64,000 nt of DNA, from the NCBI GenBank assembly GCA_008632985.1, contig QPGO01000029.1, positions 260,874-324,873 of the forward strand, read 5' to 3'. Shown here piece after piece: positions 1 through 50,649 of this stretch (position 1 is the stretch's first letter; each line of letters starts with the position of its first letter). Origin of the DNA: Psammoneis japonica (Eukaryota). The translations under genes were made by a program, and so were the position numbers. A model generated the notes under the pieces. That model saw nothing but the letters and a program-made list of their open reading frames with translations. It was not told the origin of the DNA and did not search any database.

Positions 1-23
1 TGCTGCGTTTTGATGCTTGTGTT

Positions 24-258
24 GGTCGAGACACAGTCCTGCAGCTGAGCAGGATGGACAAGACCTCGGAGGTTGGCAGCAATGTGAATGGCGACAGAGG
101 CAAACAGACGCTTGTTGAAAGTCGTTGTCTAGAAAATTATGATGAATGTCGTTGCTTCTGTTTGAATCGATTTTGTGATGAGCTAATTGTTTCGAAGAGA
201 AAATCTGAGTCTGGGTTGCAGTCGTGAGATGCAACCAGAATGACGTTGAGTCGTGACT
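24..258 (-). repeat. 3' LTR of Copia-1
   Basis: Matches 6715-6949 without gaps, 11 mismatched bases, all transitions. Confidence 0.95.
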
Positions 259-267
259 CTCCCTCTC
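259..267 (-). other. Polypurine tract of Copia-1
   Basis: Minus strand GAGAGGGAG immediately precedes the 3' LTR. Confidence 0.75.
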
Positions 268-279
268 AACCGAGAGAGC

Positions 280-3200
280 TTGCCAGCCCACAAGAGCCTT
301 TCTAGCCGTGCGGAACGCATCGGTCCGTAGTCCCTTCGTGAACTGATCGGCTAGTTGCTCTAGAGTGCTGACAGGTTGGATGTCGATCTCCAATTGTTCG
401 ACTTTAGTCCTAAACCAGTGGCAAGGGATGCCGATGTGTTTGGTTCGCGGAGACAACTTGGGCATGTGTGCGAACTTGAGGCACGCGGAGTTATCTTCGT
501 ACACAACGGACGCAGGTGGGACATTCTGCTCTACAGGCGAGTCATCGGTGCCTTGGGTTGCGAGCTCAAAAGCCTTGGAGTGAGTCGTGACAGGGTTTTG
601 GCGGTCAGACTTTCCGAATGCGTGGTGGTTGAGCTCCTTGAGAACTTCACGAATGGGGATGAGATCGCGCACAGCTTGAGAAAGTGCGACACACTCCGCT
701 TCCACAGTCGACAATGCTGCAAGAGTCTGCAGCTTGGACACCCAGATGAGCGGGCAGCCGGCGCAGTAGACAAGGTGTCCAGTCCTGGACTTGACAGAAA
801 CTGGGTCTTGACCATCTTCCACACCAAATGACCCCGCGAAGTCAGAATCGACGCAACAATCAACTCGATGATCTTGCACAGGCTTGAGAATGAGACCTTC
901 AGCAGCAGTTGCTTTGAGGCATCGGAGCATCCACTTCACTGCAGCAGCGTGGGACGCTCGGGGCGCAAACGAGAATCGAGCCACTTGATGTGTGGCATGT
1001 GCAATGTCTGGCCGGCTGTTCGCTGCCAAGTGCATCAACATTCCAACAACTGAGCGACAATCGCAGGGTTCATCAAAAGGCAGGCCGTCCGTGTCGGCAC
1101 CAACAGCCGCAGGCAGAGCTGGAGCAGATGCTCCATTGCAATCCTGCATCTGTGCGGTGCGCAGGACCTTGTCAATTAGACCGGGTTGAGTGAGTGGAAA
1201 TCGACCCTCGGAGAGCTTTTCGATCTTGACACCGAGAAAGTCACCGACTTCTCCTTCGTCTCTAAGTTCAAACACGTGGCGATGTTCGTCATCGGAGACT
1301 CCTAACTTGCGAATTTCGGCTTCTAGAGCTTCAGCTGAAGCTCCAGCAAAAACGGTGTCGTCGACGTGCACCACACACATCATGCCCTCTTTGAAATACA
1401 AACAGGGATCTGTGGCTGAAGGCACCCATCCGCGCTCGGTTAAACCAGCTCGTAACTTCTCGTAGAAGCCCTTGGGAGACTGTTTTAGGCCGCACAGTCC
1501 TTTCAAAAGTTTGAGAACCACACTGAGTCCCGACCTTGGCGCAAATCCCTTCGGCGGTGTTGTGCAAACTTCCTCGGCGACATCAGCTTGGCAAAAGGCT
1601 GTGGCACAGTCCACCTGTCGTGTGGTCCATCCCTCCTTTAATGCCGCAGTGAGCATGAGTCGGACACTGGACCATTGCACAACCGGCGCGCAGGTTTCGA
1701 AGTGGTCGACTCCTTCTTTCTGCAAATCACCGCGGACGCAGTGTCGGGCCTCATGCTTGAGAGGGGTTCCATCTGGGAGTCTCTTGAGCTTCAGCGCCCA
1801 TGTGCCTGGAAGTGCATTCATGTGCGGCTGACGCTCGACTGCTTTCCAGGCTCGACAATGTGTGAGTGCGTTGACTTCAATTTTCATCGCCTCAATCCAT
1901 TCGTCAGCATCCGGACCTTTCAGAGCATTGTGTGACGAAGGCATGTCAGGGTCCTTGGTTTTCTTGCTAGCTGCGCAGGCTCGTGGATCGCCGACATTGA
2001 TGGCGCCACTGTCCAAATCCGTCTCGAGAGTCGCCAGACACGCCAGTTGAGCCTCGTGTCCGATCGGCAGCGGCATTTCCTCGACGGAGCTGAAGTGGAC
2101 CTCATCTGCAAACTTGGCAGAGTTGAGCTGTCCCTTGGTTGACCGTGAAGACCGTCGCAGCCCTGGCGCTCCCTCTGGATTCGTCACAGGAGGTGTCTCG
2201 ACTGGGGGAGGAGCTGTTGGTTCCGTCGGCGCTTCGGGTGGCGGAAGTCCGTTGCCATCTTGAGGTTCAGGTGGCTGAATTGGCGTAGAGTCCGCAGAGT
2301 CTGTAGGAGTTTGAGTCGCAGGTGGGACTGGTGGCGTTGGCTGCTGAGTCACAGGTGCGACTCGATTGGCAACGTCGTCGCGAGAAGTGGGTGAATCCGG
2401 CACAGTGATCGATGGAGCAGGCTCAAAATGCCCGCGAATGCGTGTTGCTCTGGCCAGTTCTCGTTCTTGCACGTACGCTGGACATCCCCATGTGTGAATG
2501 TCGCGCAACCGATGTCTTGGCACTGTCGAACCGGTGAAAATGTCCGCTGGGCAATGTCCTTTGGAATTTGGGGTGACATTGTAGATGTGCGTGGCATGAG
2601 AAACTGCCATGGGCCACAGGGAGCTGTCAATTCCCCCCTTCCAGTGGATTGATGCATGAAGCAACATCGCTCTCGCCATGTTGGAGATGCTGCGGATGCC
2701 CCGCTCTGCGACGCCGTTCTGATGATGGGCGTTGGTTCCACAAAAACGGAGACGTTGTTCATGTTCTCGCACGTGTTGTACAAAAGCGTTGGCCTTGAAA
2801 GCGCCACTGTCGGCAAGAAATTCTTGGACGATGACCCCGTGGTCCAAAGCATGTTTCTCAAACGCTTGCTTCGCGTGCATCGTCTCAACAGCGGAGAAAC
2901 CCAGTTGGTGCTCGACCTGGACATAGCCAGAGGCGTGGTCGACAAAGACACAACCACCCTTGAATTGCTTGGACGTGGCTTTGCCATAAGAGTCGAAGGT
3001 GCGGCCTAAAAGGCGCGACTCAAAATGATCAACGCTGACAGCCTGACCCGGTCGAAGATGGTCAGCTCGAAGGGCCCCGTCGCGTTCAGGGACTGTCGAC
3101 TTGTGAGTAGATCCAAGAGAGCGTCCATGACCTTTAGCACATTCGCATGCCTCGCATCTTGGGTGGTCACACTTTGCTGCGGACTGGAAACGGTTCGAAA

Positions 3201-6200
3201 GGAACGGAACTGCGCGGAGAAGTGCTTGGACTCGACCAAAGTTCAAATGGCCAAAACGGGCGTGCATTTCGAGAAGAAGCTTTTGGCCTGCCGTGAGGTT
3301 TTGATTCTCCTCGTTAAGGATCTGAAGGTTCACTTGAGGAGCGGCAGATGCGCCCTTGGTCATCGACGCAACAGGCAAGTGGCTTGATGGATGATGTGGC
3401 ACGACCAACTTGCCTGTCCCGTCAACATGTAAACGGAAAGTGGTTTCATCGCCCTCACACTTCCCACGTACCCCCTTCTCTTCGTTGAAGAGGCGTTGAG
3501 GCGACAGCAGGCGCTGACGGGCTCCAGGGACGTAGCATGCCATGGTGTTCAGTTGGATGGTAGCCCCACTCGGCGTTGTGAACACCCACGCAACTGGACC
3601 GGTGCCCTGGATGGCAAGACCGTTGGCAATCCCATTGATCTGTAAGGGTTTCTTGGGAACAGTCACAGGCCCCGTAAAATCATCTTTGTCGGGGGCAACA
3701 GCTAACGTGGCACCAGCATCCATGACGACCGTGAGAGCCTCGTCCGACAGACCGATGAGTGCCTGCGGATCGGATGCAAGGAGGTTGGCTTGTGATTGTC
3801 CGGTGAGTAGTTGGATGGTGGAGGCACCACAGACGACTGGTCGAACACTTGCTTCCTCCAATGGTTCCACAGGATCTTGAAAATGGGCAGTGTCCACGAT
3901 GTGATGCGGCAGACAGAGCTCATCAAACCGGAAGAAATCCGGGCTGAAGTCCTCAAGAGCGTCAAAGAAATGCTTCTGGTCGTCGAGAGGTTCCAGTTCC
4001 TCACAGGTGTCAAAGAAGGCTGATTCGTCTATCGCATCAGACCGTTCAGCTACTTCTGGGCTCTCCCAGCAGGCCTTGAGACGAGTGCTCAGTGCGTGTG
4101 ACGGATGGCGCGCGACAAACTCGGTGAGCACTTGCGTGCCTTTGATCCTGTGATGTTCGAACAGTGACCCCGTATCCAACACTGTCCGGTCATCTGGCTC
4201 TTCCACAATGTGGCAGACTTGAGAGCCAGCGGTCGAAAAACGACTTGGTGCATTCGAGAATGGATGCTCGGGCTGTTGACCGGCGCAAACTGCTGACCAC
4301 ACCATCACTGCAACGGATGGGACCATCCAGGAGGCTGGAAACCCGTGCAAAGTTGGGAGTTTGCACTGGCGGCGTAGAGCTCGAGGGATGCATGGGATCG
4401 GAGCAAAGCAAAGATGCAGTGCCGTTTCCCAAAACATGGCGGCGAGCCAGAATGTGAATGGCTTGACTCGACCCAAGAGTGAGCGACGCGAAGTGGGCTC
4501 GTCTTCGACGTCCTCGTGACAATCATCCGCATCCAGGACCTCTGGATCGTAGAAATCAAAGCCACGATGCGTAACACACGGAGGCAAGTCGTGGCATGCG
4601 TCTTCAAAGTGTACGTCGTGTTCAAGGATGAGATCTAACTTGGTGTCGTCTGACAGCATGTCCGTCAAATGTGCGGGAGCATCAAAGAACTCATCTGGAT
4701 GCTTGACAGAGCACAGCTTCGAGGCCGGAAACAACTCAATAGCCGGTGGTTCGTTTTCAAAGGTAGAGAAAGCGTCGGAGCACTCGCAGAAGTCATCGGC
4801 GTCTTCGGGAGTGACAGTCTCAACCACGATGGGAGACACGACTGGATCCACGACTGAGGTGAGCACAGGTGGGCTCGTTTCGATGCAAACCACCTCAGCA
4901 CTAACGACTGCATCGCTCTCCCTCTCGGCCAAAGAAGCCGGAGTAACAACAATTGCAGCAGCAACAGGGGCGGAACAGAAATCCGGGTCGGCAACGGGAT
5001 CCATAGCCGCGCACCACATTCCCGTGAAAACCAACTCGTTGGGGTCGGATTCGTCTCCCTCTGGTGCCTTGGTGGTCTGAGCGGGCGGACCCATGGGCAC
5101 GCCACTGTCCGGATCAGCAATGGAAGACAAATTCCCGGCTGGGGTCTCCTTGGGAGGTTGCCTGCGGTCGTCGGCATGTTCCGCGGTAGAGTGCTTCTGG
5201 CAGATTCCAGGTTTGTCGGCACCCTTTGCCGTGCACGTGGCACACCACTTCCATTCCTTGCCATTCTTATCCTTCTTCGTTTCTCCGTCAAATTTAGTGC
5301 GCCAGGCAGCGATGGGTCGCCTCTTCTTCTTGGAAGGGTCGTCTGCAGGCGGCGGATTGGGAGGAGGATCGTCGCGCGGCGGTTTGGCGTTGCACTTCGG
5401 ACACGTCTTCTTGGTGCACCCCTCGAGACCGCAACCACAACAGTGCTTCGTCTTCCCAGGGTTGTCCGTAGTCGAAAGATTGCTCTCGGGTAGCTTGGCG
5501 ACTAATGCAGGCCATTCCCCGTCCTTCACGAGTTCGTTGTGTTGCTCTTGAATCCACGCAATGATGCCGACCAGTCCGAGCGTTTTGCAATCGCTGTCGG
5601 ACACGATGTCAGCAGGATTCTTGAGGCGGTGCTTGCGTTCCATGGCCTTGACGTCGTCGAGCTTGTTGCAGACTTGGCGATTGAAGCATTCAGAGGATGC
5701 AGAGGAGATCTTGTGGAGCAACTTGGAGCTTGTGTTCGCCGGAAGCGCGCAGTCGGTCTGCACAATTTTCACGATGCGAAGAGCTTCGGTGGCAAAGTCC
5801 GTGCAATCCTCGCCGGGATGGTCAACCAAACCAAGGTCTTCTGGCTGCTTCTTGGCCGTCTCAATGTCCGCCAGAGCGCTGGTGTTGCAAGTGTCGAGAG
5901 CCATCATGAATGGAACAGATCCAGGGCAGTCTTGGCAGTCCGAAAGATGGTTGAACTTGGTCTCGATTTTCTCGCGAAAGGTGTCAGTGATTCTTGAGTG
6001 AACGAGAAGTTGAGAGAGCCCGACATCGTCGAGCTCAATCTCGTTGTACTTGGCATCATCGGCAGCTGCTTTCCCAACCGTGTACTCGTTCACGAGATCG
6101 GTCACAGTAAACTCGTGAAGATGGTCGAAGACACATTGAACCTTGTCGTTGCTGTCCTTGACATGGCAGAACGTCTGCTGACCGTGGGCTTCTGCTAGAT

Positions 6201-6552
6201 CTCGAATGGTCTTGACGAAATGGTCCTTGTCAAGCTCGTTGATGGGACCGTCCGAAATCTCAAGTCGACCGTTGAACTTGGAAGTCATTGCGGAAGCTTG
6301 TTGATCGCGGAGAGATCGTTCTGTCGAGTCGAGAGCCTTGGGATGACGGCGCTGAGAGGCAAGTCGGCAGGTTCTGTCGTTGGATTGTTTGCAGTTGTTG
6401 TTGAGTTTGGAACCACCAATGTAAACCCCGTGGGTTGGGTGAATTCCACCACGCAACGGCTTGGTTGGAGCCGGAGGAGCGGTCGCCGCGGCGTCAGCGG
6501 CCATTGCATCGGCAAACGCCTTCGCCAGAACATCTTGATCGATGGCAGCCAT
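280..6552 (-). pseudogene. Copia gag-pol polyprotein, about 2090 codons, frame apparently open but with conserved Tyr replaced; natural stop lost
   Basis: Read manually (absent from the ORF track because the frame runs off the window edge without a stop). ATG at 6552 (MAAIDQDVLAKAF); gag WKWCATC..H....H; protease MDAGATLAV; integrase VSVDHFE and HQNGVAER; RT LKGLCGLKQSP and CVVHVDD (1357-1368); RNase H CVDSDFAG, EAECVALS, LADQFTKGL; ends KALVGW then CAA (280-282) where TAA is expected. Frame spot-checked at several points, not at every codon. Confidence 0.9.
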
Positions 6553-6714
6553 GACAGAGAGTGCAGCATGGGAGGTTCTTGTTAGAGTGAAGACGAGAGA
6601 AGCGAGAGAGACTCAGCTATTTCCCGGGTTTGCTTCAAAATCAAAAACCGAAAGCGTCCGTGACGATGACTCGGTCAGGAGCTCTCGTCAACGCGTGAAT
6701 TGGTCTCTGTGACC

Positions 6715-6949
6715 AGTCGAGATGCAGTCCTGCAGCTGAGTAGGATGGACAAGACCTCGGAGGTTGGCAGCAATATGAATAGCGACAGAGGTAAACAGAC
6801 GCTTGTTGAAAGTCGTTGTCTAGAAAATTATGACGAATGTCGTTGCTTCTGTTTGAATCGATTTTGTGATGAGCTAATTATTTCGAAGAGAAAATCTGAG
6901 TCTGGGTTGTAGTCGTGAGATGCGACCAGAATGACGTTGAGTCGTGACT
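6715..6949 (-). repeat. 5' LTR of Copia-1
   Basis: Direct repeat of 24-258; retains TA at most sites where the other LTR has TG or CA; followed on the minus strand by a possible primer-binding site (T)GGTCACAGAGACCA. Confidence 0.95.
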
Positions 6950-7156
6950 ATGTTGTTATCGAGCGGCGGTGCGAAGCAAAAATTCCGCCCAAACCCTGTT
7001 TTTCGGGACTCATAACCCCTGCACATGGCTTATAGACACATCACGCAAGACGCAAGTTCCAAGTTGACGATGGTCGACGTAGCCCTACTTTAAAAAGTCA
7101 GAACACAGAACCCTCTTACATCATATTGCAGAGCTTAAGGTTCTTTTAGTGCTGCC

Positions 7157-8981
7157 ATGGAGTCCACTAATGGTGTCGACAACTCGAAGCAACAGAAATC
7201 AGTAGCACAAGAGACAACCGGTGACCCGTCGCACACGTGCCCGTACTTGGATACCATTGATCGTTCCGTGTTGGACTTTGACTTTGAACCGTCGTGCTCC
7301 GTGTCGTTGGAGTCGGGTCCGCACGTTTACGGGTGCTTGGTGTGTGGTAAATTTTTTCGAGGACGCGGTCAGCATACACCCGCTTATACGCACAGTGTGG
7401 ATGATGGGCACTTTGTCTACGTTCACTTGGCACGTGGGACCTTTCACTGCTTACCAGATGATTATGAGATTAAGGATCCGTCACTTGCAGATATTTCAGA
7501 CGCTCTACATCCTCATTTTAGTCAAGACGATATTGATAAGGTCGATACAAACACTGGACTGGCTCGAGATTTGTTTGGGCGTCGGTATTTGCCCGGCTTT
7601 GTGGGCTTGAACAATCTTCACAAGACAGACGGTATCAACGCTATAGTTCAAGCCTTGGCGCACGTTCGACCTCTTCGAGATTTTTTCTTGCGCATGACAC
7701 ACAATGATGTCTCTATTGAAACTACAAAGTCAAAGAAAAAAGCTCACAAAAAGATCAAGCTGCAGCAGCAAGGGCCGCATCGCTTGTCACCGTTGGTGTT
7801 GTGTTTTGGTGAGCTCATTCGCAAAATATGGAGTGATAAGCGTTTCAAGAGTCATGTGGACCCTCACATGCTTGTTCAGGCCATTACGGTTGCATCAAGT
7901 AAGAAATTTCGAGTCGGCCATCAACCCGAAGCTGGTGAATTCATGGCGTGGCTTCTCCATCAGTTGCATGTGGGGTTGGGAGGGACGAGGAAGCCTGGAT
8001 CTAGCATTATTCACAAACTCTTTCAGGGACGTGTTCAAGTCACTACACGACAACGGCGAATTGCGGATATGTCAAATCTAGAAGAAGATGATCGGGGTGG
8101 CAGTGACGAGGAAGAAAATAACGAGGAGCACAAGCAACAGCCAGAGGTTGTAGTTGATGAAAACACGACAGATACGCACTTTTTGCAACTAACGCTGGAC
8201 ATTCCCGAGAAGCCCTTGTTTCGAGATGACGAGGGAGGCCTAGTCATTCCTCAGGAACCACTCGTCTCTGTATTGAAAAAGTTTGATGGCATGACGTTCT
8301 CCGACGCAATAGATCGGAGTGGCGTGGCACAAAAGCGTCGGTACCGTTTATTGGAGTTGCCAAATTACCTCATTTTGCACTTGGCTCGGTTCAAGAACAA
8401 TCGCTACTCCAAGGAAAAGAATCCCACCATTGTGGCCTTTCCGGTCAAGAACTTTGATTTGAGTGAATACGTTGTTCATCCGGACGGGAAGCGGGAAGAT
8501 CCTCCGACTGAGGAACAAGTCAAAGCAATGAGTGTGAGTTGAAGGACTGTCTGAAGCTATTGCTTTTTTGCCATAAACTCCTAACCTGTGTATCTCCTAC
8601 TCATTTCACTCAACATAGACCAAGCAGCTCAAAGTACTTCTCGCCAAACACGGACGACAAGAACTGGGAGCCAACATTGTCGAAAAGTCTGAACTCGTGT
8701 CCGTCACGCTTGATTTTGTCACAAAAAGTTTGCCCGACATGCTTGCCGACAAGTATGACCTTGTAGCAAACATTACGCACCACAGTCCAGCAGAAGTTGG
8801 GAGGGAGGGACAACATGATCCGTTACAAGAGGGCTCGTACAAGTGTCATGTTCAGCATCGGGGGACTGGTCAATGGTATACAATGGAAGATCTTCATGTA
8901 GAAGACACTATGCCGCAGTTGATTGGACTGTCAGAAAGCTACGTCCTCATCTTTGAACGCAAGGGTATCTATGCTAAATGA
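7157..8981 (+). CDS. USP39: U4/U6.U5 tri-snRNP-associated protein 2 (USP39/Sad1), 2 exons: 7157-8533, 8619-8981, 579 aa
   Basis: CPYLDTIDRSVLDFDFE, ZnF-UBP (YGCLVCGKFFRGRG), YLPGFVGLNN with Asp in place of the catalytic Cys, EKNPTIVAF, YDLVANITH, SESYVLIFER; GTGAGT...CATAG intron 8534-8618 joins the two ORFs in frame. Confidence 0.95.
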
Positions 8982-9309
8982 TCAGAAAATCCTTTATTAA
9001 CTACGGTGAGTTACCGCTAGAAACTCTCCCCGCTTTACGATTCCAGCTTGGATGTCGCCGTCTGACCTTTGGATTTCAAACCAAATAAATAATTTTATAC
9101 TTAAAAGCAAAGATCTACGACTTTCTGAGTCTTTTTCGCGTCTATCAATGGATAGCCGCCATGTTCATGGAGGTAGTGCAGAGGCCTCGGCAGCTGACCC
9201 GAGTGTGGAATGCTGGCATCCGCAAGAAGGGGAGTCTCGAGCAGTTTGGTATTTTGAACCGTATTGTTCAAAAATACGCGTCGAGTGATGGGGATGGCCT
9301 TCAGCTTGG

Positions 9310-9556
9310 TAGGGCCCTCTACTCTCTAGAGTAGGCCCTCCCTAATCTAGCTCTCTACTCTAGTCTCTCTAGTAGAAGTAAGGTAGCTAGCTGCTACTCT
9401 AGAGAGTAGCTACTACTAGTTGGTTATCCGTACAGATAAGAGAGGCTGACAAAGAATTGTGTGCGAGTGCACTCTAGCCCTGCTCTACAGATAGAACTGT
9501 GGAGCGAGAACAAATCGTGCCGTAGTCTCTAGGGCCCTACAGTAGCTAGGGCCCTA
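9310..9556. repeat. CTA/TAG-rich low-complexity patch with short palindromes
   Basis: About 30 TA dinucleotides in about 250 bp, mostly CTAG/GTAG/CTAC; TAGGGCCCTA at 9530-9539 and 9547-9556. Confidence 0.7.
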
Positions 9557-9645
9557 CAGACAGATCGTCCCACTCGAGTCGAATAAGTCGTTGCTGCTGC
9601 TCGAAATTCACGGTAAACACAACACACAACCAACAAACACACACC

Positions 9646-10245
9646 ATGGCGACATGCCCGACTTCTGCCTCCAGTACGACTGCAAATACAACCACATCAG
9701 AAACAACAATCATGCCTCCAGTACAGTCTATGCCCACATCGCACGAGAACTCCGAGCTCGCGGATGGCAAAGGCACCAGCACTCATGCTGGCGAATCGCA
9801 GGAATCACCCCCTTCCAAGCAAACGCCGACGCAGTGTTTGTCGCCAACCCAATTGAAAACCGATGGGGCGTCGGAATCTTCAATCATCTCGAGTACCAAC
9901 CCCGTACTGGCTTCCACATTGTCCGATAATGAGGGAGAGGTGATGAAACGAAAGCACGAACACGACAGTTGCAATGTTCGGACTAACAAGAAGAGGGGCA
10001 CGCTTCCACTTGCCACTTCGATTCATATGAAGTTGCGTGCTGCCGGGGACGCTGGGGATAAATGGTGGCATGATCTTGAACGAAAACATGGTTTGAAGGA
10101 AGAAGAATCACTCGTGGTTTATGGAATCGTCACAAAGAACTTACACAAAGAAGAGTTTCCACCGGTCGGCGAAGGCTCGAAAAAGGAGTACTTCCTTTTG
10201 GCTAAGGAGGGTTGGCGCTTGATGAAGAATACAACGCTCTGCTGA
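9646..10245 (+). CDS. Hypothetical protein (Ser/Thr-rich N-terminus, charged C-terminal part); possibly transposon-associated or a pseudogene
   Basis: 199-aa ATG ORF after an AC-rich leader; normal TA/CG content; no recognisable family. Confidence 0.4.
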   Translation: MATCPTSASSTTANTTTSETTIMPPVQSMPTSHENSELADGKGTSTHAGESQESPPSKQTPTQCLSPTQLKTDGASESSIISSTNPVLASTLSDNEGEVMKRKHEHDSCNVRTNKKRGTLPLATSIHMKLRAAGDAGDKWWHDLERKHGLKEEESLVVYGIVTKNLHKEEFPPVGEGSKKEYFLLAKEGWRLMKNTTLC

Positions 10246-11199
10246 AACTGCATCCAAAAGAAAATGCGGAACAAATTTGTCGCGATGGTGTATGGACGAT
10301 GGTTCACGCCAGTCGCTGACAACGACTTAAGGCGTGGTAAAAGAGTTTGATCAGGCCGTATCATGTCTCCGTGTCCATGTGCCTGAGAATAAAATAATAA
10401 TTTTCTTGGCGCAAAGCGTTATTTTCATTCCAACAGTTTCAGTTGGCAATGAAGAAGCATCTGATGAACCACCCAATAATGACTCTGGAGTCCTTGTTCA
10501 AGAGACCCCAAACCTCTGCCCATGTGTTGGGCTTACATTAGAAGGGATAAATCCAAATGAGGCGGGGCGGGTTTCTCTGAGGCTTTCGCCCCGGATTGAA
10601 CCTCCGGTGTCTCGCCATACAAAGTTCCCAGTGCAGAGGCCAGCCTTCTAAGCTCCATTCGCATCTTGGTGCAGTGGTTCGTAAGGGGTGAACCACAGGG
10701 CCGTAGCCACCAAGAAGCATGCATTGTGTTCTGTGCAGATGATGAGCGGGAAAGCCCAGCTTCGCATGCAGTGAGAGACGAGGAATTGTTGTTCTACAGG
10801 TGTCCTTTTAAAGAGAAGAGATTTGAGCAAACCCTGATGCCATTGTGAAATCTGGGTGCTTGGTGAAAGGATTCCACTTCAATCTTCTTTTTTCTTGAAA
10901 GCTGAAACAAGCAGGGCAACCAGTGCACAGACAACAAATGTCACCATTTTTCTTTGTTGACAGTTTGCAGCATGTGCCATGGCTTCTTTGTTGCATGGCA
11001 TGGGTCATCTTCACATGTTGACTTTCATGGCAGCACAGCTGACCTCCATCAGACTCTCACAGTCAATGTCAGATCAGATGCTTGCTTGTCTTGCATCACC
11101 AATGACATGGATGAATTGCATTGCTCCCCTCTCTTGATCCACACGGATCAACAGACAGAGCCAAAATTGCAATCACATCAAGCCAACAACCAAAGCCAC

Positions 11200-12776
11200 G
11201 AATCTGCTGCCTCCATTGATGCCCTCATGATGCTCAACCCTGCTGGCCCCTCCTGAACCAAGCTTGCCACCAGCGCTCATTTCCTTGGAGGGATGCCCTG
11301 TCAGCTCCATTAAATTTGTGGCCAAACACCTTGCCACCAAAGCTGATGCATTTGTGCCCTCCCTTTGCCTCTTCTCATCCTGCTTGCTGACAAACAAACT
11401 CAAAGCTGTTTCTTCAGACATGTGCACTCATGTCCACATCCCAGCCACCTCCTTTTCTCTGACATCTTTTACAACCTCTCCTTCACCTCTGACAATCCTG
11501 CCCATGCTTGGTCATCTTTTCTTGACTGCATCTGTGCTTCCTTCTGACACTTCCTCCATCATCTGACCGACTGCCAATCTGACCTTCTCTTCCATGCTCT
11601 TGCTTTTGCCCAGAGGCCTGCCTTCCTCCCGCCATCCCTCCTCCCTTTGTCACCTCCCTTGCTCAATCCCTTCAACACTCATGCCTTGGTGTTGACTCAA
11701 CAGGCGACCCAACCATCAAACTCCATCCAGCTCATTCTTCCACCCACCTCCATCAAGTCACTTCCTGTGACCTTTGTGGTCTTCCGATGTCTGAATCACC
11801 TCTGTGCCATGCAAGTTGTTCAATTCCTTGTCAACAACCCATCCTTCCACCATGGCTTCAACTGCTTTCTTGTCTCCCACGCAAGCCTTGCCCTGCTTTC
11901 TTTCTCATGCTTGCAAGAATGCAACCACCTCTTCCCCTGCTCCCTTGCCATTGTCCCACTCCAACACAAACTGTGCCTTCCGTCCTTCCCTCTTTACACT
12001 TGCAGGTGCAGATTGCCCCTGTGGCCACAAGCTTGATGCCTGTGGTGACCATGCCTTCTCATGCTCTGGTGCCTGCAAACCCCTCCTCTCTAACTCAGTT
12101 GGAGACATGGTCTGGTCACTCTGCCATGCTCTTGGCCCCCTTGCTGGCCTCTGCTCCACCACCTCTGATGTGATCATTGTTGAAACCCTGGGCCTCCTTG
12201 TTCCTTCCCCACCAAATGCCATGCTGACATTGGAGTGCAGTTTCACACACACAATTCTGCTGCCATTGTTTTTTCTCTGTCCCTGCTCCCATGCCACCCA
12301 CCACTGTGTGCCAGGTTTGCCACCTCCCTCCAATGATCCACTTGCCATGGCACACCACAGCAGTGCTTGGAGCAAGTTTGTTGCTCAATCTGCCCCTTCC
12401 TCCTGTGGCCCTGAAATCATCCAGTGGCTTCACAGACTGTGGCAGCATCTTCCTTCTCCCCTTCACCTTTGGCCAATTCTCTCCCCACCCTCACAACCCC
12501 CCCCAGTCCTCTCCCCAAGATTTCAATGATCTTGATTGGCTCACATTGCCTGCCAATGCTCCCTGCTTGCCCTTCTGGCCTCCTTTCGTGTGCAGATGCT
12601 GCCTGGTCCCAGCTCTGCCCTGACTCCTTTGGCACTTTTTGCCACTCTCACTCCCCATCCAAGTGGGCCTCCCAAAACCTTGCTGTTGACAACATGCCAT
12701 CTGCCCTTTCCCCTCCCACCTGTCCTGCTTCCCAGAACAATCCAGTCACCTGCCACTGCTGCCTGTCTGACCTTCC
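11200..12776 (+). mobile_element. Degenerate CRE-like non-LTR retrotransposon fragment
   Basis: C-rich; residual peptides ADKQTQ and CPCGHKLDACGDHAFSC (zinc knuckle) are collinear with the element at 48524-50632. Confidence 0.65.
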
Positions 12777-13089
12777 TGTTGGAATGTTGAGATGAGAGAC
12801 CCAAATGTTGTGTGATGTGACCCAGACAATTTGAACAGGAAGGATGTGGATCCTGATGTGGTCCACCAATGTGACCATCTTTGATGAGATCACAACTGTC
12901 ACCACATTCTTTGCATGTGTTTTATTCTCACTCTTTGGAGTGAATCATTTGGTTTGCATGATCCTCAGTTGGTGTCAAGAGGCACCTGTCATTTTGGGAG
13001 TCACGCAGTTTGCATTTGTGCCAAGGCATGCCACAGAGCTGACACATGCTGCCAAGGCCAGTGTGATGAGTTGCTCAGGAGACCTCTGA
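12777..13089 (+). repeat. 5' LTR of Copia-3
   Basis: Begins TG; aligns with 19427-19733, differing mainly by CA/TG swaps. Confidence 0.8.
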
Positions 13090-16000
13090 AGATTTTTTTT
13101 GTTTGGAAGACATTGACTTGCTTGTTCAACATTCACTCCAAAGAGTCACAGCCCTGCATTTGGTGCTCATTTGCCTCAAGACTGCCACCCACACCAAGAC
13201 ATCAGAACACCTGCAAAATGAGTGGGAGGAGGTGGTGGATCAAGCTGTCAAGGCCAAGATGCATCATGGCAGATGTGGTGGAAGTCACAGGTCATCAAAT
13301 CAGAAGATGAAGACCAGTGTCAAGAAACACCTTCAGTCTGAGATGAATTTTCATCCTTTGTCACTGAACACAGCAATTCCTGAAATGCGACATTCAAGGA
13401 AGTCCTCAAGAAGATTGCTCCACACACACAGAAAAAGCATGATCAAGGGGCACATCCAGCAAGATCCATTGAAGACATGAAGCAGAAAGAGTTCTCAAGC
13501 AAGATGCTCACATGTGTGGGATCTGACATCATGCTGCCAGCAATTGATGACCCCAACTGCCATGAACAGCTCATGAAGAAAACCAACAAAGGCAAAGGTG
13601 TGGAAATGCAGCACAAGCAGGACTGCAACGATTGGTGTGAGAAGGTCAAGAAGTTCAAAGAGAACAAAGCTGCCACATTTGCAACAGACAAAGCAGAGAT
13701 TGAAAGGCAGCCCTGATTTCAAATCTGCAAGAGAGGATCCAGCTACATTGCTGAAACTGATGATGCTTGCCTTTGATTCTGTGGTGAGAGGTGGGCACCT
13801 GTTCCATGTGCTCATGAAGGCATGGAAGAAAATCCTTGATGGAGGCAGCAGGCAGCAAGACACCAACCATTGAACAACTGCCTGTCAAGATTCAAGAACC
13901 AGCAAGACTCCACTGGAGAAGCATTGGGAGACAAGTTGCTTGAGACGTGTTCCTTTCAAGCATGAGGGAACACAAAGATGCTGACAACATGAAGAAGAAA
14001 GAAATGAAGGAGCTTGCATTTGAGATGTGGACAACACACCTGTTTGTGGCAAACAGCAATGTGATCACCACTGCAAGAACCTGAAGATGAGCTTCATGAG
14101 AGACCACAGCCTGGACAAGGACACCTGTCCAAAGGCCCCAGACAAGGCAATGGATGTTGTGCCCGACCATCCAAAAGACAATGATCTGCACAAACAGTGG
14201 AAAGACGCTGCACGGAATGACTGCAACTAGAACAACAGGACCAAGAATGGGAGTGAAAGCACTGACTCAGAGGAACAGAAGGACCAGAGTCATGCTCAAC
14301 AGAGCAACCAGAGTGACAAGTTCATGAGTCACTGTTGTGGTGCAAAAGGCCACATGACCCCCAAATGTGGCCACAAGGGCACTGTCCTCCACAACAGGTG
14401 GTGCAAGAAGACTGGTGAGAAGCCAGAAAATGGGGTCCAGAGCCATGCACAGATGCAAGGTGGAAATGACAAAGACTCATCAGTGGAGAGTGACAGTTTG
14501 AGTGTCAACACCATGAGATCCAATGGATCAACCCAGCCCAGCTGCAGCAGAGGCTCTGCACAGCAAGGGTTGCAGTTGGACATCAAAAGACTGGAAGTGA
14601 GCACAAACCAAGCCAATGCAAACATCAATTCACAGGAGATTGTCCTCAAAAATGGTTTTGCCCTTGGCATGGCAGCCAGCCAGAGACCAGTGCACAATGT
14701 GTGACTGGCAAGGATTGAGATTGATCTGTCAACCAATGCAGGTGTGGATGCCCTGGACAAAGACTGCACAATGCCAGGGTGGGGAGACACAAAGCTTGGA
14801 TCAGATGGCACAACAGCAAATGCCTTTGTTTTAAAGGATGCAAAGAACAAGTGCCGCATGACTTGTGATGACAGAGTGGCAGACAAGTTCCAACCAAGAA
14901 GACTGGAAACAAAGTCATGGTGTTCAAGGTCAACAACATTGGACTGCACATGTTTGCCCCAAGTCAAGAATTCTTCAACTGCACTGAAGAGCTGCAAGCA
15001 CATGTGAGGAGCATGTGAGCATGCTGTCAAAGGATGAGAAGAAAACTGCCAAAAAGAAGTGCAAGGGCACCTCTGCAGTGAAAAGGGTTCCAAGCTGTTT
15101 TTATGATGGAATCAGGCAAAGAATCTGTCCAACATGCTGGAAGATGTGGACAGAATGGCGGACATGTGGGGGGCATGGACACATGCACTAAAAGGAAAGA
15201 CCAAATGTGTGCACCATTCCCACAAGCCCATGAGAGGAACAATGTCACAGCATTGCCACCTGAAAATTAAGAGAAGCAGAGAGACTGCATGATGCTCTGC
15301 ATTGATGTTGTGGAAGTGTGTGGAGTCAAGATGCCACACTTGACAGACAAGACTGTCAAGCACCATTCCAGCATGAAGCTCAAGTCCAAGAACCATGCCA
15401 ACACACACAAGGCATTGGATGTGATCCTGCAACAGTGCCACATGAGCACATTCAAGATCATTTTCATTGAGTGCAACCCAGCATTCAAGGACATGTTGGC
15501 AGCAGTTGCTGATGGCATGGACCTGGTGTTGATGTCAATGAATGCCAGTGACCATGTCCATGAAGTTAAGAGAAGCGTTCAGACTGTCAAAGAAAGAGCA
15601 AGCACTTGGGTCACTGCGCACCACCTGCCACACAAGACAACACCAAAGTTGACATGTGAGCAAGCCAAAATCAAGAACGCAGTGATGACAAATGTGCACC
15701 CACAAAAGGAGGGAATCTCAGACACACACAGTGCACACATGATTGCACAACAAAGACACCTCAGCTGTGACAAACATTTTGAATTCTCATTTAAAGAATT
15801 TGTCCCATCCCATGCCAAGCCCAGCCAATCAAACACAATGGATGCATGTGGTGTTGACAGCATCTGCATGTGACCATGCCATGATGTCCTGAAGGGCAGA
15901 CACTGTGCCATGAACTTGCACAAGAGCAAGCTGCTTAATTGCTGCAGGTTTGCCATGATCCCCCTGACTGACATGCACATTCAAGCAGTCAAAGAAATCA

Positions 16001-19426: not shown

Positions 19427-19733
19427 TGCGGGAATGTTGAGATGAGAGACCCAGATGTCACACAATGTGACCCAGATGATTTGAGTGAGAAGGATGTGGA
19501 TCCTGACCTGGTCAATGGACATGACTTTCTTCAATGAGATCATGACCATCACCACATTCTTTGCACATGTTTTGTTCTCACTCTTTGGAGCAAATTGTTT
19601 GGCTTGCACAATTGTCAGTGTCAAGAGGCACCTGTTGTTTTGGCAGTTGCGCAGTTTGCATTGATGCCAAGGCACACCATGGCTGACACATGCCACCAAG
19701 GTGAGTGAAGTCAGTTGCTCAGGAGACCTCACA
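19427..19733 (+). repeat. 3' LTR of Copia-3
   Basis: TG...CA termini; aligns with 12777-13089. Confidence 0.8.
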
Positions 19734-19899
19734 GGATGCCCCCTTTGGGAGACATTGACTTCTGGCTCAACACTTGTCTTTCCACCCCTCCCCTCCATCT
19801 GATCAGCATCCATCTGGTGCCCCTTTTTTCTCCAGTCCTGCTTCTCCTGTGGTTTGGGTGTTGCCACACCATGAGCAGGGTGGGAAATTGCAGTGGCGG

Positions 19900-29630: not shown

Positions 29631-29793
29631 CCATGGCGCCCTTTGGACGCCAATGTCTCAAAATCTGACAGGGGGCATGACCCGGTCTCAAGTGCATTTT
29701 CACTTGTCAGGCAATCTTGTGCTCACATGGCCATGAGACCGGGTCATGCCCCCCATTGGATTTTGAGACAATGGCGTCCAAAGAGCACCATGG
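29631..29793. repeat. 60-bp imperfect inverted repeat with 43-bp spacer (MITE-like or hairpin)
   Basis: 29631-29690 is the reverse complement of 29734-29793 with about 7 mismatches. Confidence 0.85.
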
Positions 29794-30276
29794 AGCTGAC
29801 GGTTTTTTGATGCTGTGATGTCAGCACTGATTTCCTCACAGGAATCCAGTGCAATCCCATGCAGAATTTCAAAAATCTCTTGGATGCACATCACACAAAT
29901 TTGCACCTCCCATTTGCTCAACAACGGTTGACGAAATCAACATTGCTGATTGCTGTTCATCTCAACAACCTTGCTCATTGTCAGTCAACGTGACGTCCAT
30001 TTAAGAAAATGCCAAAAAAGAGTGACCCTTCCAAAGCTGCAGCCTGCGCTGCCACACATCGCCTCTACACTGCACCAGCCACGGAAATTGAAAACCATTT
30101 TTGCAATTGACAGAAATGTGGTGGACACAACGAGCCACACCACATTGACTGCCAACGAGCCTTGGTCACATCTGCTGTTTTGAGAATGGAAACTCCAATG
30201 AAAGGAGGCAACTGCTCTGGCTTCAAAAACAATGAGCAGCCAACCAAGGCTTCACTGAAGAATTGGGATCCTCATC

Positions 30277-30537
30277 AAATTTTGCCAGTGCAAGTCTTGA
30301 GAGTTGCAAAGAGCGTGAAAGTTGCAAGAACCAGGTGCTGCAGCATCATTGTTGTTTGGCACAAGTTTTGTGCTACAAACAAGTTGCACTGCTGAGTGGC
30401 ACAAGCATCATGCCCACCAAATTTTGCCAGTGGTGCAATTCTCGTGAGTTGCAATGAGCAGGAAAATCACAAGAATTGCTGCACTGTCATTGTTGTTTGG
30501 CGCAAGTCATGTGCAGCGACCAAATTGTGCCAGCGCC
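30277..30537. repeat. Imperfect tandem duplication, unit about 140 bp
   Basis: Both units share AAATTTTGCCAGTG...GAGTTGCAA...TCATTGTTGTTTGGC.CAAGT. Confidence 0.6.
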
Positions 30538-31297: not shown

Positions 31298-31573
31298 TGA
31301 CAGAAAATGAAGGCAAATGGCAAGAATTCAAACAACAACTCCTTGCTGCTGTCTAAATGGCAGATGAGTCTCCGCTCAGAGACCGTTGCAGGAGCCGAAA
31401 GACGCGCAAGTCGGCATGATCGGGCTGCTGTTGTCATTCTTGTGAGCCTTGTGGCTTGAAAGCAAACTACATCGCGCGTGAACGCGCGGAACCAAAGCAC
31501 ACAAAACTGTGCACGGTAAACTAAACAGCGCGCGACACTTCGCGCGCACCCAAATCCTGTTCAAATCCTGTCA
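31298..31573 (-). repeat. 3' LTR of Copia-2
   Basis: Ungapped direct repeat of 35573-35848. Confidence 0.95.
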
Positions 31574-34500
31574 CTCCCCAGTTTGCTTGAGGAGCCACAG
31601 AAACAGATTCGACTTCGGATGGAATGAAGTTCCAGAACATGAGGGGGCGGAGAAGGTCCCAGATTTGGGAGTGACCCCAATGCTTGCTGAGAATGTCAGC
31701 AGGGTTGCGGGAGCCTTCGATGAAGTGGAACTCAAGGCAACCAGAGGCAATTGCCTCACGCACACGGTGGAACGATAGTGCGGTGTGTCGCTTGTGTAAC
31801 TTGGAGTGCGGGATGGTGGCACTGTCTACAACCGACTTGTTGTCACCGAACATGTGACCAACATTACGGATCGGGACGCCAAGGCAGCGCAGGGTGATGC
31901 GCAGGTCGACAATCTGCTCAACACAAGTCCTTGCGGCAACAAATTCAGACCCGCAGGTCGCAGTCTCCACGGTGGCTTGTTTCTCAGAGAACCAATCAGC
32001 TGGGAATTTGTTGAGGAAGTGGAGCATTCCCATGACAGAGCGTCCGGTGAGCATGCAATGGTACAAGTTTGCATCGACGTAGTGGGTGGCAGTGACGAAC
32101 TTGCCAAGGGGCGGTGGAGCGTCCTTCGGGATCATCTCTTCTGCTTCGCCATACACGGAATGCATCCATTCATAGGCCGGAGCAGGGAGATCCGAACAGT
32201 CGGGCTCTTCCGTGCGAACGCGGAGAGCACCGTGTCGCATCTTGGAGAGGCACCCACAGACGCGTTTGGCACGGTCCAAGTGGCCTTGACGGGGCGCAGC
32301 TCGGAAGCTAGAGAGTGACATGACGGCCGTGGCAATGTCAATTCGACCAAGGGACACTGCCCATTGGAGTGAACCAACAAGAGACTGGAACTTGTGAATG
32401 CCATCGGGTCCCAGCAGTTCGGAAGTGTCCAGTTCGGGGTGGTCACCCTTCTCTAGAGGTGACAGGGCGTTGGTGGCAGGTTTCTCCCCAAACAGTCGGG
32501 CACAGCTGTCGACCATGCGCTCGATGTACTTGCGCGGAGACAGGCACAAGGTTCCGTCGGGTTCCCGGGAAAAGTCGCAACCCAGATGGAACTCAATGGG
32601 TCCCGCACCCTTGAGCTTGAACTTGTGATTTTTCGTGAGAGTGTCGACGAAAGATTGAGGGTCCTTCATGGCAATGGCGAGGTCATCCACATAAACGGCA
32701 ATGCATTCACAGTGGTCGCCGTTCCTGCGCATCCAAATGTCGGGTTCGGCGCGGCAGGGGAAGAAGCCTTCAGCTCGCAGGCAGTCGGCGAAGCGCTCGT
32801 GCCAGCGGAGACCGGAGCTGCGCAGTCCATGCAGTGCCTTGTGGATGACAAGGATGTGCCCTTCGAGTTTGCCGAACTCGGGTCCAGCTACAATGTAAAG
32901 CTTCTCCTTGGTGGTGGCTTCAAGGTAGGCATTGCCAATGTCGGTGGCCCATGTCTCCAACTCGTTGAGTTCGGCCAGGAAAATCATCAGCCGAAGGCCA
33001 CGGAGGGAGACTACTCCGGAGTGGACACTGTCGACAGGTACGTCCGTGAGGTGCCCGTCGGCTACGAGTCGTGCCTTGTGGCGACCGTCGTGTTTCACGT
33101 CGTGCGCTAGGTGCACTCGGATCTTCTTGTGTCCCGCAGGAGGAGTGGAAGACTTGAAGGGCCCGCAGTCATGGAAGACTTCGTATTCGTCGAGTTGGTC
33201 CATCTCGAGATTAGTTGCGTCTCCCCACTTGCGGTTGCCGTTGCGTTCGTCTAGTGACATGGCGTGTTTGTAGTTCCGGGGAACTTCGCATCCATGCTTG
33301 TAGCGAGGTGCAGTGCGGAAGGAGCGAAGCTTGGCTTGGTTGGCCATGCGAAATAGCTTCTTTTGGCGCCTCGCGATGGTGCGGAATCGCTTCCAGCCAT
33401 CCGTGTCGAGGAGTCCGTTCTCTCGTGCATAGATGGCACAGGTGACGGGGTCGTCCTTGGCGATGATGGCAAGAGGCTCGGACGTGATCTCCCCACTTTC
33501 CCATTCAAGCATGATGTTGTAGCTGGAGCCTTTCCAGGTTGGGTCGTGAGGCTTCAGAGGTCCTTCGTGCGACACGATGCGTCGAAATTTCCAAACAGTG
33601 GCATCTTCGTCTTCTTGCTCAATGTGATTCATGATGTCATTGTAGGCAAGGACTTCCTCGTATTCGTCATTGTTGACAGAGCAGACGAACTTAGTGAGCT
33701 CGGGATTGCCGTTCACTTTCCATTCGTGGTCTTCGACGGCCTTGACGATGCGAGCTCTGTGGCGTTGTCCATCCTCTTGTGGCTGCATGAGGAAGGTGCG
33801 TCCAATGATGTCTTGCGGATCGAAAACTGGCATCTTGGGTGTCCTGATCTCCCCATCAGGAGAGTCGACGGGGTTGTCGTCATGGCAAGATTTGATGATG
33901 GGTTCAGGTGGCTCCCCATCAGGAGGATCAAGACGCAGGTTTCGAACGGCAGGATCGGAGGTAGCGGAGCGGACGTTGGACCGGCAGAGGATCTTCTGAG
34001 TCTCGTCAGATAGAATCTTGAAGGTCATCTGGTGGCCGACGTGCTCAGCAATGCCAACGAAGCGTCCACGCAACTCACGGGATTCGGACGGCCAATCGGA
34101 GTCATCGAGGTGGAAGTAAACGGGTTCCCACCAATGAAAGCGAAGCAACGGGCTGATGTCCGGGGTGGAGCCAGTGAGAGTCTCGAGGGGCGTGCGCCAG
34201 TGGAGACGTGGGGACGCTGCATGGTTGAGTGTGAAGCACACGTGCATGAGCGCCAGCAGCCATGCATGGGCGGGCGAACCAAAACGATCCATGACAGTGT
34301 TCGCCATGCGCTTCACGGTCTGGTGTCGACGTTCGGCAAAGTTTTGGTGTTGCTGGTGAGGCTCACTTTGCCAGCTAGAGATGAAGAGGGCGCGTAGGAT
34401 CCCGAGCACTTTGTTGCTGATCTCAACTTGAGCATGGTCGCTAATGAGTTTGGATGGGGCACCACGTTCACGGATCTGATCCTCGAGTGTGTTGACAAAC

Positions 34501-35606
34501 TCTTTGTCCGTCTTAGTGCCGCAGACGTCAGTGACGGTAGACTCGGTGCCAACAAACAGTTGGGCGCTGGTGCAACCAGAGTCGACGGCCGGGGTGTCGG
34601 CACAAACGGTGTCAGTGGCGATGGGCTCGTTGCGGCGGTGCACATTAAGGGCGGGGTTGGGTGATTTGCAGGCCTTGCGAAGGTGTGTACCGGCGGGCAT
34701 GCGGGCGCACTGCGTGGTGCAGTCAAAAGTACGACGGACCGCATCGGCAGGTAAGAAGCCAAAGTGAGGCCGAAGAGACTCGAAGGGGGGGTCCTTGGGC
34801 TGCACAGTGCGCTCCGGAGGTGGAACGTCGTCGTCCTGGGGGCCAATCGCATGCAGATGACACTCGCAGAACACGTCGTCGTTCGGAATGAGGTGATCAT
34901 CGAGGGCGGACGCGTGATCGGCAGACAAGGAAGCGGACATGATGGTCTCGTTGACAACGACACGATGACGGCAGTTGCCGCATTCGTCAAACAGGTTGGC
35001 AGTGGGATCGTCCTGCAGGTCAGAGATCGCGTCGTGCCACTGGTCGTCGTCAGTGACAGAGTGATCGAGGACGGAAGGGTCCCATGTGTCATCACCGGTG
35101 AGGATGACATGGGGCAGGGTGTCCCATTCGGCGTCAGTGCAAGGTCGCATGGCAACATGAGGCAGGCCAGCCTTGGTGTCAATGGGGATGACACAGCCAT
35201 CAGGAGTGGCAATGCGTTGCAAGCCGTTGGGCACCTTGACAGAGCGATCGTTGACATCCTGTTTGTGCCATTCGAGCTGGCCGCAGGAATGGATGGTCTT
35301 GCCCTTGCCCGTGTGTGCGCACTGATGGAGGATGGCGATGACGGGACCACGCTGGGTCTCAACAACGGCACCAGCGGTGACAATGGGGATGTCCACCAAT
35401 TGATGATCGTCAATGCCCTGAACGTCGACTTGGTGAGAGGTGCGTGCAATGATGCGAACGTCGTCGCCAGCAATGCCGCCGTTGGCCCCACGATCGACTA
35501 GAGCACCAGTGCGTGTGGAGCGATGAGCAGAGGCAGAGCAAATGACATTGTGGTTGTTAACGCGGCGGCATCTGACAGAAAATGAAGGCAAATGGCAAGA
35601 ATTCAA
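31521..35606 (-). pseudogene. Copia pol (protease-integrase-RT-RNase H); open frame with many Tyr>Cys/His changes
   Basis: ALVDRGANGG, HQNFAERR, DVKHDGRHKARLVADG, TDIGNAYLEA, AVYVDDL, YVDANL, GDNKSVV, NPADILSKHW. Both ends of the called ORF lie inside LTRs, so its start and stop are not the natural ones. Confidence 0.92.
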
Positions 35607-35848
35607 ACAACAACTCCTTGCTGCTGTCTAAATGGCAGATGAGTCTCCGCTCAGAGACCGTTGCAGGAGCCGAAAGACGCGTAAGTCGGCACAATCGGGC
35701 TGCTGTCATTGTTCTTGTGAGCCTTGTGGCTCGAAAGCAAACTGCAACACGCGTGAACGCGCGGAACTAAAGCACACAAAACTGTGCACAGTAAACTAAA
35801 CAGCGCGCGATGCTTCGTGTGCACCTAAATCCTGTTCAAATCCTGTCA
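35573..35848 (-). repeat. 5' LTR of Copia-2
   Basis: Ungapped direct repeat of 31298-31573. Confidence 0.95.
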
Positions 35849-36067
35849 TTGCACAACAGCTCTCTTGCTCCCCATGATCGCGCTGCTTCCCCCACAATGA
35901 CGATGATGCCCCTGCTTGGCAAGATGTCTCTTCTGACCACCCATCAAGCTCACTCTCAAGGCCACTGCCAGTTGGTCCATCTCGGGCCTTGTGGCTTGTC
36001 ACAGCAACCTTCTTGCTTTTGACGCTCCTCTTCAAAAGAGCAACATCAACAGTTTGTTGCAGACCCA

Positions 36068-48291: not shown

Positions 48292-48523
48292 AGCTCAAGA
48301 AAATGGAAGACACAGGACGAAGACAACACGGTGCTTACTGTACCGGCGCCGATAGGAAAACGAAAGGCGACAAGACACAAGCCGGAGGAACTTTTGACGA
48401 ACTTTTCACCATGGCTTTTGTTTCGTTTCGGGATCAACATCCAACATCGCGCCCGCATCTCGCGCAGCGCCGTTCGTTGTTGGAGAACGCGGCGCGCGGC
48501 TGTGTCGCGTGGAATTGCATCAG

Positions 48524-50632: not shown

Positions 50633-50649
50633 TGAAGTTAGTTCTTTTG

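Follow-up and report, generated by a model that had tools for sequence, protein, structure and literature searches.

Post-insertion loss of TpA dinucleotides recodes a Copia retrotransposon of the diatom Psammoneis japonica without creating stop codons

A stretch of 64,000 nucleotides from contig QPGO01000029.1 of the pennate diatom Psammoneis japonica (hereafter the window, to whose positions all coordinates refer and which is the single source of the evidence) carries at 25-6949, on the minus strand, a complete and recently inserted Ty1/copia (CoDi-like) long terminal repeat (LTR) retrotransposon of approximately 6.9 kb, here called element 1. After insertion, the DNA of this element lost TpA dinucleotides, and some CpG dinucleotides, by transitions to TpG and CpA. 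The same spectrum and direction of change affects a second, unrelated Copia family and has run to completion in older repeats of the window. This suggests a process that resembles fungal repeat-induced point mutation (RIP) in its effect, has the opposite dinucleotide signature and is apparently undescribed. Element 1 is composed of the following parts (o/e, observed-to-expected ratio of a dinucleotide):

20-24: target-site duplication beside the 3' LTR, TGTTG on the plus and CAACA on the minus strand, matching five bases at 6951-6955
25-258, minus strand: 3' LTR of 234 nt, direct repeat of 6716-6949, with 3 TA (o/e 0.18)
259-267, minus strand: polypurine tract GAGAGGGAG, abutting the 3' LTR, as read from the sequence
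1-282, minus strand: read-through tail of 94 codons past the normal end of the family, open up to the window edge
280-282, minus strand: CAA codon at the stop position of the family
283-6552, minus strand: recoded gag-pol polyprotein frame, 2090 codons counted from the first ATG
409-855, minus strand: RNase H region with CVDSDFAG, EAECVALS and IPCHWFR, each with Cys where relatives carry Tyr
1114-1851, minus strand: reverse transcriptase domain (Pfam RVT_2), containing LCGLKQ and VVHVDD
3706-3720, minus strand: protease motif DAGAT (consensus of relatives FDTGAS), in which T966A fits a TA>TG change spanning a codon boundary
6698-6715, minus strand: putative primer-binding-site-like stretch that starts with TGG and abuts the 5' LTR, as read from the sequence
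6716-6949, minus strand: 5' LTR of 234 nt, which keeps 9 TA (o/e 0.50) and 13 CG
6951-6955: target-site duplication beside the 5' LTR, TGTTG, with one extra base at 6950

The two LTRs of an element are identical at integration. Those of element 1 are now 95.7% identical and differ by ten transitions, no transversions and no gap columns, and all of these transitions (10/10, at nine sites) belong to the class TA/CG versus TG/CA. The 5' LTR has TA at six of the sites and CG at two where the 3' LTR has TG or CA, and at one site TG in one LTR faces CA in the other; the TA outcomes in the pair are three TG and three CA. In the 3' LTR, 7/10 TA and 2/13 CG sites have been changed, and no other position has. 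Because LTRs that were identical at integration now differ at TA and CG, these changes postdate insertion and took place at the level of DNA. A second in-frame TAA, which is retained in the 5' LTR and reads CAA in the 3' LTR, provides direct evidence for the removal of stop codons. Two further LTR pairs, belonging to the elements listed here, were compared in the same way:

31298-35855, minus strand: element 2, a Copia element unrelated to element 1, with LTRs at 31298-31580 and 35573-35855 and an open reading frame (ORF) of 1368 codons
12781-19780: old LTR element with LTRs at 12781-13139 and 19431-19780, 77% identical as DNA and 94% in a purine/pyrimidine code

The LTRs of element 2 are distinguished by 18 transitions, three transversions and no gap columns, with 17/18 transitions in the class described above and four sites at which TG stands against CA. 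In the old pair (12781/19431), 67 transitions, 13 transversions and nine gap columns have accumulated, and 19 TG-versus-CA sites were counted against 52 concordant sites, as expected from an independent resolution of almost all TA and CG sites in the two LTRs. Reduced to purines and pyrimidines, the pair of element 1 is 100% identical, that of element 2 99.6% and the old pair 93.9%.

The reading frame of element 1 survived these changes. It is open on the minus strand from 6612 to base 1 (2204 codons, no stops), with its first in-frame ATG at 6552, and the remaining five frames of the same DNA contain 43, 82, 47, 62 and 89 stops. The trinucleotide content of the element itself predicts about 41.7 stops; given none against these roughly 42, the open frame descends from a functional gene and does not result from composition. 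In Pfam, the RVT_2 match reached an E-value of 3.1e-32 and 112.6 bits (cutoff 31.6), while an integrase-core match was absent from the frame and gag_pre-integrs remained under its cutoff. The motifs follow one another as DAGAT (aa 965), HARFGH (aa 1117), RVT_2 (aa 1588-1833) and DSDFAG (aa 1920); the domains of Ty1/copia elements are arranged as protease, integrase, reverse transcriptase and RNase H. The nearest proteins are polyproteins of 2068-2300 aa from diatom-type contigs, one of them from Fragilaria crotonensis, and the best identity to any protein found is 57%. The designation CoDi-like refers to an apparent likeness of type, host and frame (Ty1/copia, a diatom, a single long gag-pol frame). 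A stretch of approximately 450-500 residues (about aa 480-950 of the frame) that carries no Pfam domain separates the gag zinc-knuckle region from the protease; a stretch of similar length and poor conservation is present in the relatives of 2068-2300 aa.

An initial annotation, made from the sequence letters, had proposed that the exchange of TA for TG or CA recoded this frame and removed its terminator without producing stop codons. The six features on which it relied were all found on the minus strand where it had placed them: LCGLKQ (1480-1497), VVHVDD (1357-1374), CVDSDFAG (832-855), EAECVALS (679-702), IPCHWFR (409-429) and, at 280-282, the CAA codon behind GW. In the consensus of 13 relatives, Tyr occupies all five motif positions (SLYGLRQ, VVYVDD, CYVDADFAG, EAEYIALS, IPYHWFR) and the sequence terminates with ...MGW, and 4/4 relatives checked by tblastn end exactly at window position 283. 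Since the relatives end at GW, the CAA at 280-282 occupies the former stop position, as had been supposed. The claim that the frame continues through the LTR and off the window was borne out insofar as it is open to base 1, but the 3' LTR (25-258) lies wholly inside the window, with 24 bases beyond it.

The recoding is visible throughout the polyprotein. Tyr makes up 0.6% of the ORF of element 1 versus 1.73-3.9% in 120 relatives, and the shares of Cys and His are increased. In an alignment with 45 relatives, element 1 matches the conserved residue at 511/646 conserved columns. At the 27 columns with conserved Tyr, it keeps four and has 12 Cys and five His, so that Tyr has given way to Cys or His at 17/27 columns; 15 relatives treated alike keep 23-27 of the 27 Tyr and show 0-1 Cys/His. 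The 134 changed conserved positions were sorted by the single base change able to produce each of them:

TA>TG: 31 positions
TA>CA: 7 positions
CG>TG/CA: 3 positions
other transitions: 12 positions
transversions: 34 positions
two or more changes needed: 47 positions

A single TA step thus suffices for 38 of the 134 changes, in agreement with the recoding initially proposed. The affected sites include the reverse transcriptase motif (YVDD>HVDD) and the protease motif (DTG>DAG), and the recoded protein is, judging from these substitutions, probably non-functional. With 27 in-frame CGA codons left, the frame would break once the slower change of CpG to TpG proceeds.

Genes, young elements and old repeats differ in dinucleotide composition across the window:

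Genes: TpA o/e 0.51-0.62, CpG o/e 0.89-1.00
Two young Copia elements: TpA o/e 0.20-0.24, CpG o/e 0.94-0.95
Old repeats, approximately 31 kb: TpA o/e 0.02-0.05, CpG o/e 0.14-0.41
10751-31297, old repeat DNA including the old LTR pair: TpA o/e 0.05, CpG o/e 0.17
35856-37500, old erased DNA flanking element 2: TpA o/e 0.02, CpG o/e 0.41
49251-58000, old erased DNA: TpA o/e 0.05, CpG o/e 0.14

Element 1 itself has a TpA o/e of 0.20 and a CpG o/e of 0.94, TpG and CpA reach an o/e of 1.6-1.9 in the old repeats, and the composition switches from one state to another within approximately 250 bp. Along 48300-51000, from a gene into a repeat island, the TpA o/e drops earlier (0.39, 0.09, 0.04) and the CpG o/e later (1.01, 0.61, 0.26). 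Element 2, which shares only 22-24% identity with element 1 in the reverse transcriptase region, keeps 13/40 conserved Tyr and has 15 Cys and eight His at these positions, compared with 0-2 in ten control relatives. Its frame (31521-35627, minus strand) comprises 1368 codons and its relatives mostly 1850-1900 residues; to judge by length, the element looks shortened or internally deleted, yet it is fully open.

No protein domain is left between the old LTRs at 12781-13139 and 19431-19780. In the old erased regions, 93 ORFs (stop to stop, 110 codons or longer) were searched with Pfam and none had a transposon domain (0/93), and tblastn of six Copia proteins into these regions gave no match at E <=1e-3. 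The same 93 ORFs yielded one CaMKII_AD/SnoaL-like match and two weak matches at chance level. The ORF relic with the CaMKII_AD/SnoaL-like match (36023-36490, plus strand; Pfam E 1.8e-9) lies within TA/CG-erased DNA, and its 156 residues include many Cys and His and not a single Tyr; it appears to be a gene fragment of non-transposon type that was recoded likewise. At eight TA and 11 CG sites still intact in the element 1 5' LTR, a solo-LTR-like relative of the element 1 LTR at 55112-55340 (67% identical, 83% in purine/pyrimidine code) has TG or CA.

The erased DNA was also compared with k-mer contigs (depth 54-62) from a DNA sequencing run, X1. These reproduce it with few differing letters over several pieces, among them 9554-12471 and 12933-14305; one contig of 2927 nt at depth 58 spans 9554-12471, across the boundary at approximately 10750, with 11 differing letters. 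Over 20 kb, window and contigs differ by transitions at 363 places and by transversions at 101, and in single-copy old DNA TG stands against CA between window and contig at 12169-70, 12684-85 and 16745-46. At the six best-supported differing places in element 1, the window has TG or CA where all contigs have TA (one place) or CG (five places). Over element 1, contigs with a likeness of 85% or more sum to a depth of 4400-5900, about 80-100 times that of neighbouring genes; although this sum is not a copy number, it suggests that element 1 belongs to a multi-copy family. Among related loci in metagenomes, 66/66 have a TpA o/e of 0.41-0.92, and Tyr amounts to at least 1.73% in 240/240 relatives (120 per element).

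Several properties of the mutation process can be read from these data. The process is fast: since approximately 70% of the TpA in the 3' LTR has changed and no other position has, the rate at TpA is two orders of magnitude above background, and TpA loss in this LTR exceeds CpG loss (2/13). Both strands are used, with a ratio of 27:13 (p=0.04) for sense-strand TA>TG versus TA>CA at the conserved Tyr codons of both elements. When the succession of TG and CA in mutated DNA was examined by a runs test, no clustering emerged (z -0.7 to 2.1), and this lack of strand-coordinated runs is evidence against a processive single-strand deaminase. On the kilobase scale the loss is patchy; in element 2, Tyr sites were hit in 10/10 cases at aa 30-462 versus 3/11 at aa 504-911 (p=0.001). 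In element 1, the 5' LTR was spared (1/10 sites versus 7/10 in the 3' LTR, p=0.02) and lies approximately 145 bp from the first base under the neighbouring gene's transcript-like contig. Most TAs that survive in old DNA have the context YTAR (TTAA in 36/103), and those preceded by A or followed by T have almost disappeared.

We consider it highly probable that a host process erased TA, and some CG, from element 1 after its insertion. This process would act on transposable-element or heterochromatic DNA and turn about 70-80% of the TpA in the body and 3' LTR into TpG or CpA, the change being an A:T>G:C transition on either strand, and it would convert a smaller share of CpG into TpG or CpA more slowly. 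Such transitions make no TAA, TAG or in-frame TGA and destroy existing TAA and TAG; with no stops created and old ones removed, the gag-pol frame remains open, runs past its former stop and is recoded, Tyr becoming Cys or His, Ile and Met becoming Val, and Thr becoming Ala. We infer that an enzymatic, targeted mutator works here like a genome defence, and targeting by chromatin state would be consistent with the sharp borders and with the sparing of the LTR on the promoter side. That a dedicated genome-defence mutator, chemically unlike RIP, finds transposon or heterochromatic duplex DNA and converts A:T to G:C at TpA on either strand is a serious possibility, although we stop short of calling it probable. 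The candidate would then be an enzyme that deaminates adenine in DNA or one that modifies thymine, elements would be silenced by recoding without stops, and repeats would in the end be stripped of TA and CG. More tentatively still, the simplest chemistry would be that adenine is deaminated to hypoxanthine at TpA, which is self-complementary, on one or the other strand of duplex DNA, while CpG would be lost via deamination of cytosine or methylcytosine; a thymine modification that is read as C might serve as an alternative.

A number of points weigh against this explanation. The evidence is limited to one window of 64 kb, and part of the internal TpA losses of element 1 could predate its insertion and need not be independent from copy to copy. 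Just one of the six best-supported copy-specific differences is of the TA type, and run X1 may derive from the sample of the assembly itself; it is a control of the sequencing chemistry and does not represent an independent individual. That the 5' LTR is spared was seen in one element, with no clear sparing in element 2. At 57 conserved Tyr codons, no preference for a flanking base reached significance (3' T versus C, p=0.54; 5' R versus Y, p=0.36; 5' C versus the rest, p=0.08). To our knowledge, no enzyme converts TpA to TpG or CpA in duplex DNA, which makes the proposed chemistry a guess, and targeting by repetition, the hallmark of RIP, may or may not extend to the diatom process.

Of the competing explanations, the one that survives best, improbable as it is in our view, requires no dedicated mutator. 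Spontaneous, context-dependent mutation, raised in methylated and compacted transposon chromatin, would accumulate passively with time, its components being the deamination of 5-methylcytosine (5mC) at CpG and an unexplained liability of TpA. The CpG loss in the old repeats fits ordinary methylation decay, the passages on diatoms in PMC9998398 describe transposable elements as CG-methylated, and some related loci in other diatoms combine a CpG o/e of 0.17-0.5 with normal TpA. This explanation is difficult to reconcile with a 3' LTR in which about 70% of TpA changed with no transversions and no other transitions in 234 columns, and with 66 related loci from which TpA loss is absent. Hyper-editing of the transcript from A to I by an ADAR- or ADAT-like enzyme, fixed by reverse transcription and integration, is very unlikely. 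Known adenosine deaminases prefer A>G with a 5' U or T neighbour, and the 27:13 excess of sense-strand TA>TG over TA>CA (p=0.04) would suit them. Editing before reverse transcription is nevertheless contradicted because it would leave identical LTRs and changes on one strand, while the LTRs of element 1 differ at nine sites and both outcomes occur (three TG and three CA in the LTR pair; 13 Tyr>His), with TG even facing CA at one site of the pair; moreover, old repeats and the relic of a non-transposon-type gene are likewise affected.

A sequencing or assembly artefact, in which long reads are miscalled at modified bases of transposon DNA (5mC at CpG, a modified TpA), would account for pure transitions, the lack of indels and the intact frame, but is extremely unlikely given that the X1 contigs, which require accurate reads, reproduce the erased DNA at depths of 54-62, that a collapsed consensus of differently mutated copies would be expected to restore TA and not to remove it, and that old erased DNA shows transversions and gaps like ordinary old sequence (13 and nine columns in the old pair). 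A natural and still active lineage with these residues and a long C-terminus as its norm is equally hard to credit: the frame is fully open, the summed contig depth (not a copy number) is 80-100 times that of neighbouring genes and HVDD is, according to the initial annotation, a natural variant of some Copia lineages, but Tyr-poor sequences number 0/120 among the relatives of element 1 and 0/120 among those of element 2, close relatives lack these residues and the extended C-terminus, those tested ending at GW, the element's own 5' LTR still carries TAs lost from the 3' LTR, including the in-frame TAA, and two unrelated families show the same shift.

Among known systems, the post-insertion loss of TpA comes closest to RIP of ascomycete fungi, besides which a RIP-like hypermutation at TCG is known from basidiomycetes. 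RIP is triggered by duplication, acts premeiotically and depends on a RID-type methyltransferase homologue. Common to RIP and the diatom process are an in-place hypermutation of transposon copies at the DNA level, by transitions only, on both strands and at a dinucleotide target (10/10 and 17/18 transitions in the LTR pairs), the untouched state of adjacent genes and the (in the diatom presumed) inactivation of elements soon after insertion. RIP changes C:G to T:A, mostly at CpA, and thereby creates TpA and stop codons, as described in PMC2621366 and PMC3318451. In contrast, the diatom process changes A:T to G:C at TpA, destroys TpA, raises GC and makes no stops; where RIP would raise TpA, its o/e falls here to 0.02-0.24 in the direction TA>TG/CA. 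A RID-like DNMT4, of unknown function, is mentioned for some diatoms in passages of PMC9998398 and is a candidate for the CpG part alone.

Retroelement editing by ADAR or APOBEC likewise recodes retroelements by clustered transitions, and the base change of ADAR is also A>G. Such editing precedes integration and affects one strand, leaving identical LTRs, whereas the LTRs studied here diverged after insertion (at nine sites in element 1), both strands were hit and both outcomes are present; G>A, the outcome of APOBEC, was not seen. Methylation-driven decay of CpG shares the CpG>TpG/CpA spectrum of the old repeats (CpG o/e 0.14-0.41) and can explain the CpG part of these repeats alone; it leaves TpA untouched, unlike the situation in the young elements, whose CpG o/e is still 0.94-0.95 while TpA has already fallen to 0.20-0.24. 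The consulted passages of the CoDi paper by Maumus et al. 2009 (PMC2806351) make no mention of TpA-specific decay, and a search of open-access and bioRxiv full text found no report of TpA-directed transposon hypermutation in diatoms or elsewhere, which does not prove its absence. For 5-hydroxymethyluracil as a possible link to modified thymine, the literature yielded only dinoflagellate reviews.

If the proposed host process is real, it would represent a hypermutation of transposons at the DNA level outside fungi, with TpA as a new target and A:T>G:C as a new base change. It would imply a DNA-modifying activity of a new kind, which could be found by comparison with relatives that are free of the signature, and the responsible enzyme would be a natural A-to-G editor of double-stranded DNA. 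Annotation rules break down on such elements, as the initial annotation had anticipated for intactness screens based on ORF length: a perfect frame of 2000 codons, with no stop in 2204, would be scored as intact despite the replacement of 17/27 conserved Tyr by Cys or His. Dating by LTR divergence would be badly off, given that the LTRs of element 1 diverge by 4.3% in total and by 0% outside TA/CG sites. Fully erased repeats match no family (no transposable-element domains in 93 ORFs), so that the repeat content of genomes would be underestimated. Furthermore, repeat DNA is pushed to a higher GC content, rich in TG and CA, which amounts to a visible mutation pressure on genome composition.

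The gene next to element 1 is USP39-like (7139-9008) and 61-69% identical to counterparts in pennate diatoms such as Nitzschia, Pseudo-nitzschia, Fragilariopsis, Cylindrotheca and Phaeodactylum, which places the host in this group. A contig from a further run, X2, skips 85 bases within this gene (8534-8618, plus strand) that are bounded by GT and AG; this marks the skipped segment as an intron and X2 as RNA-like, despite its listing as 'DNA?'. Over 1-6670, X2 gave no contig, and a single piece of 85 nt at depth 2.1 lies at 6714-6798, neither of which is evidence on expression. An ORF at 48277-49215 has no Pfam match. In old erased DNA, 29631-29793 and 30268-30527 contain a palindrome-like stretch that is visible only in purine/pyrimidine code (87%), together with a two-copy tandem repeat of approximately 120 nt, whose copies are 75% identical.

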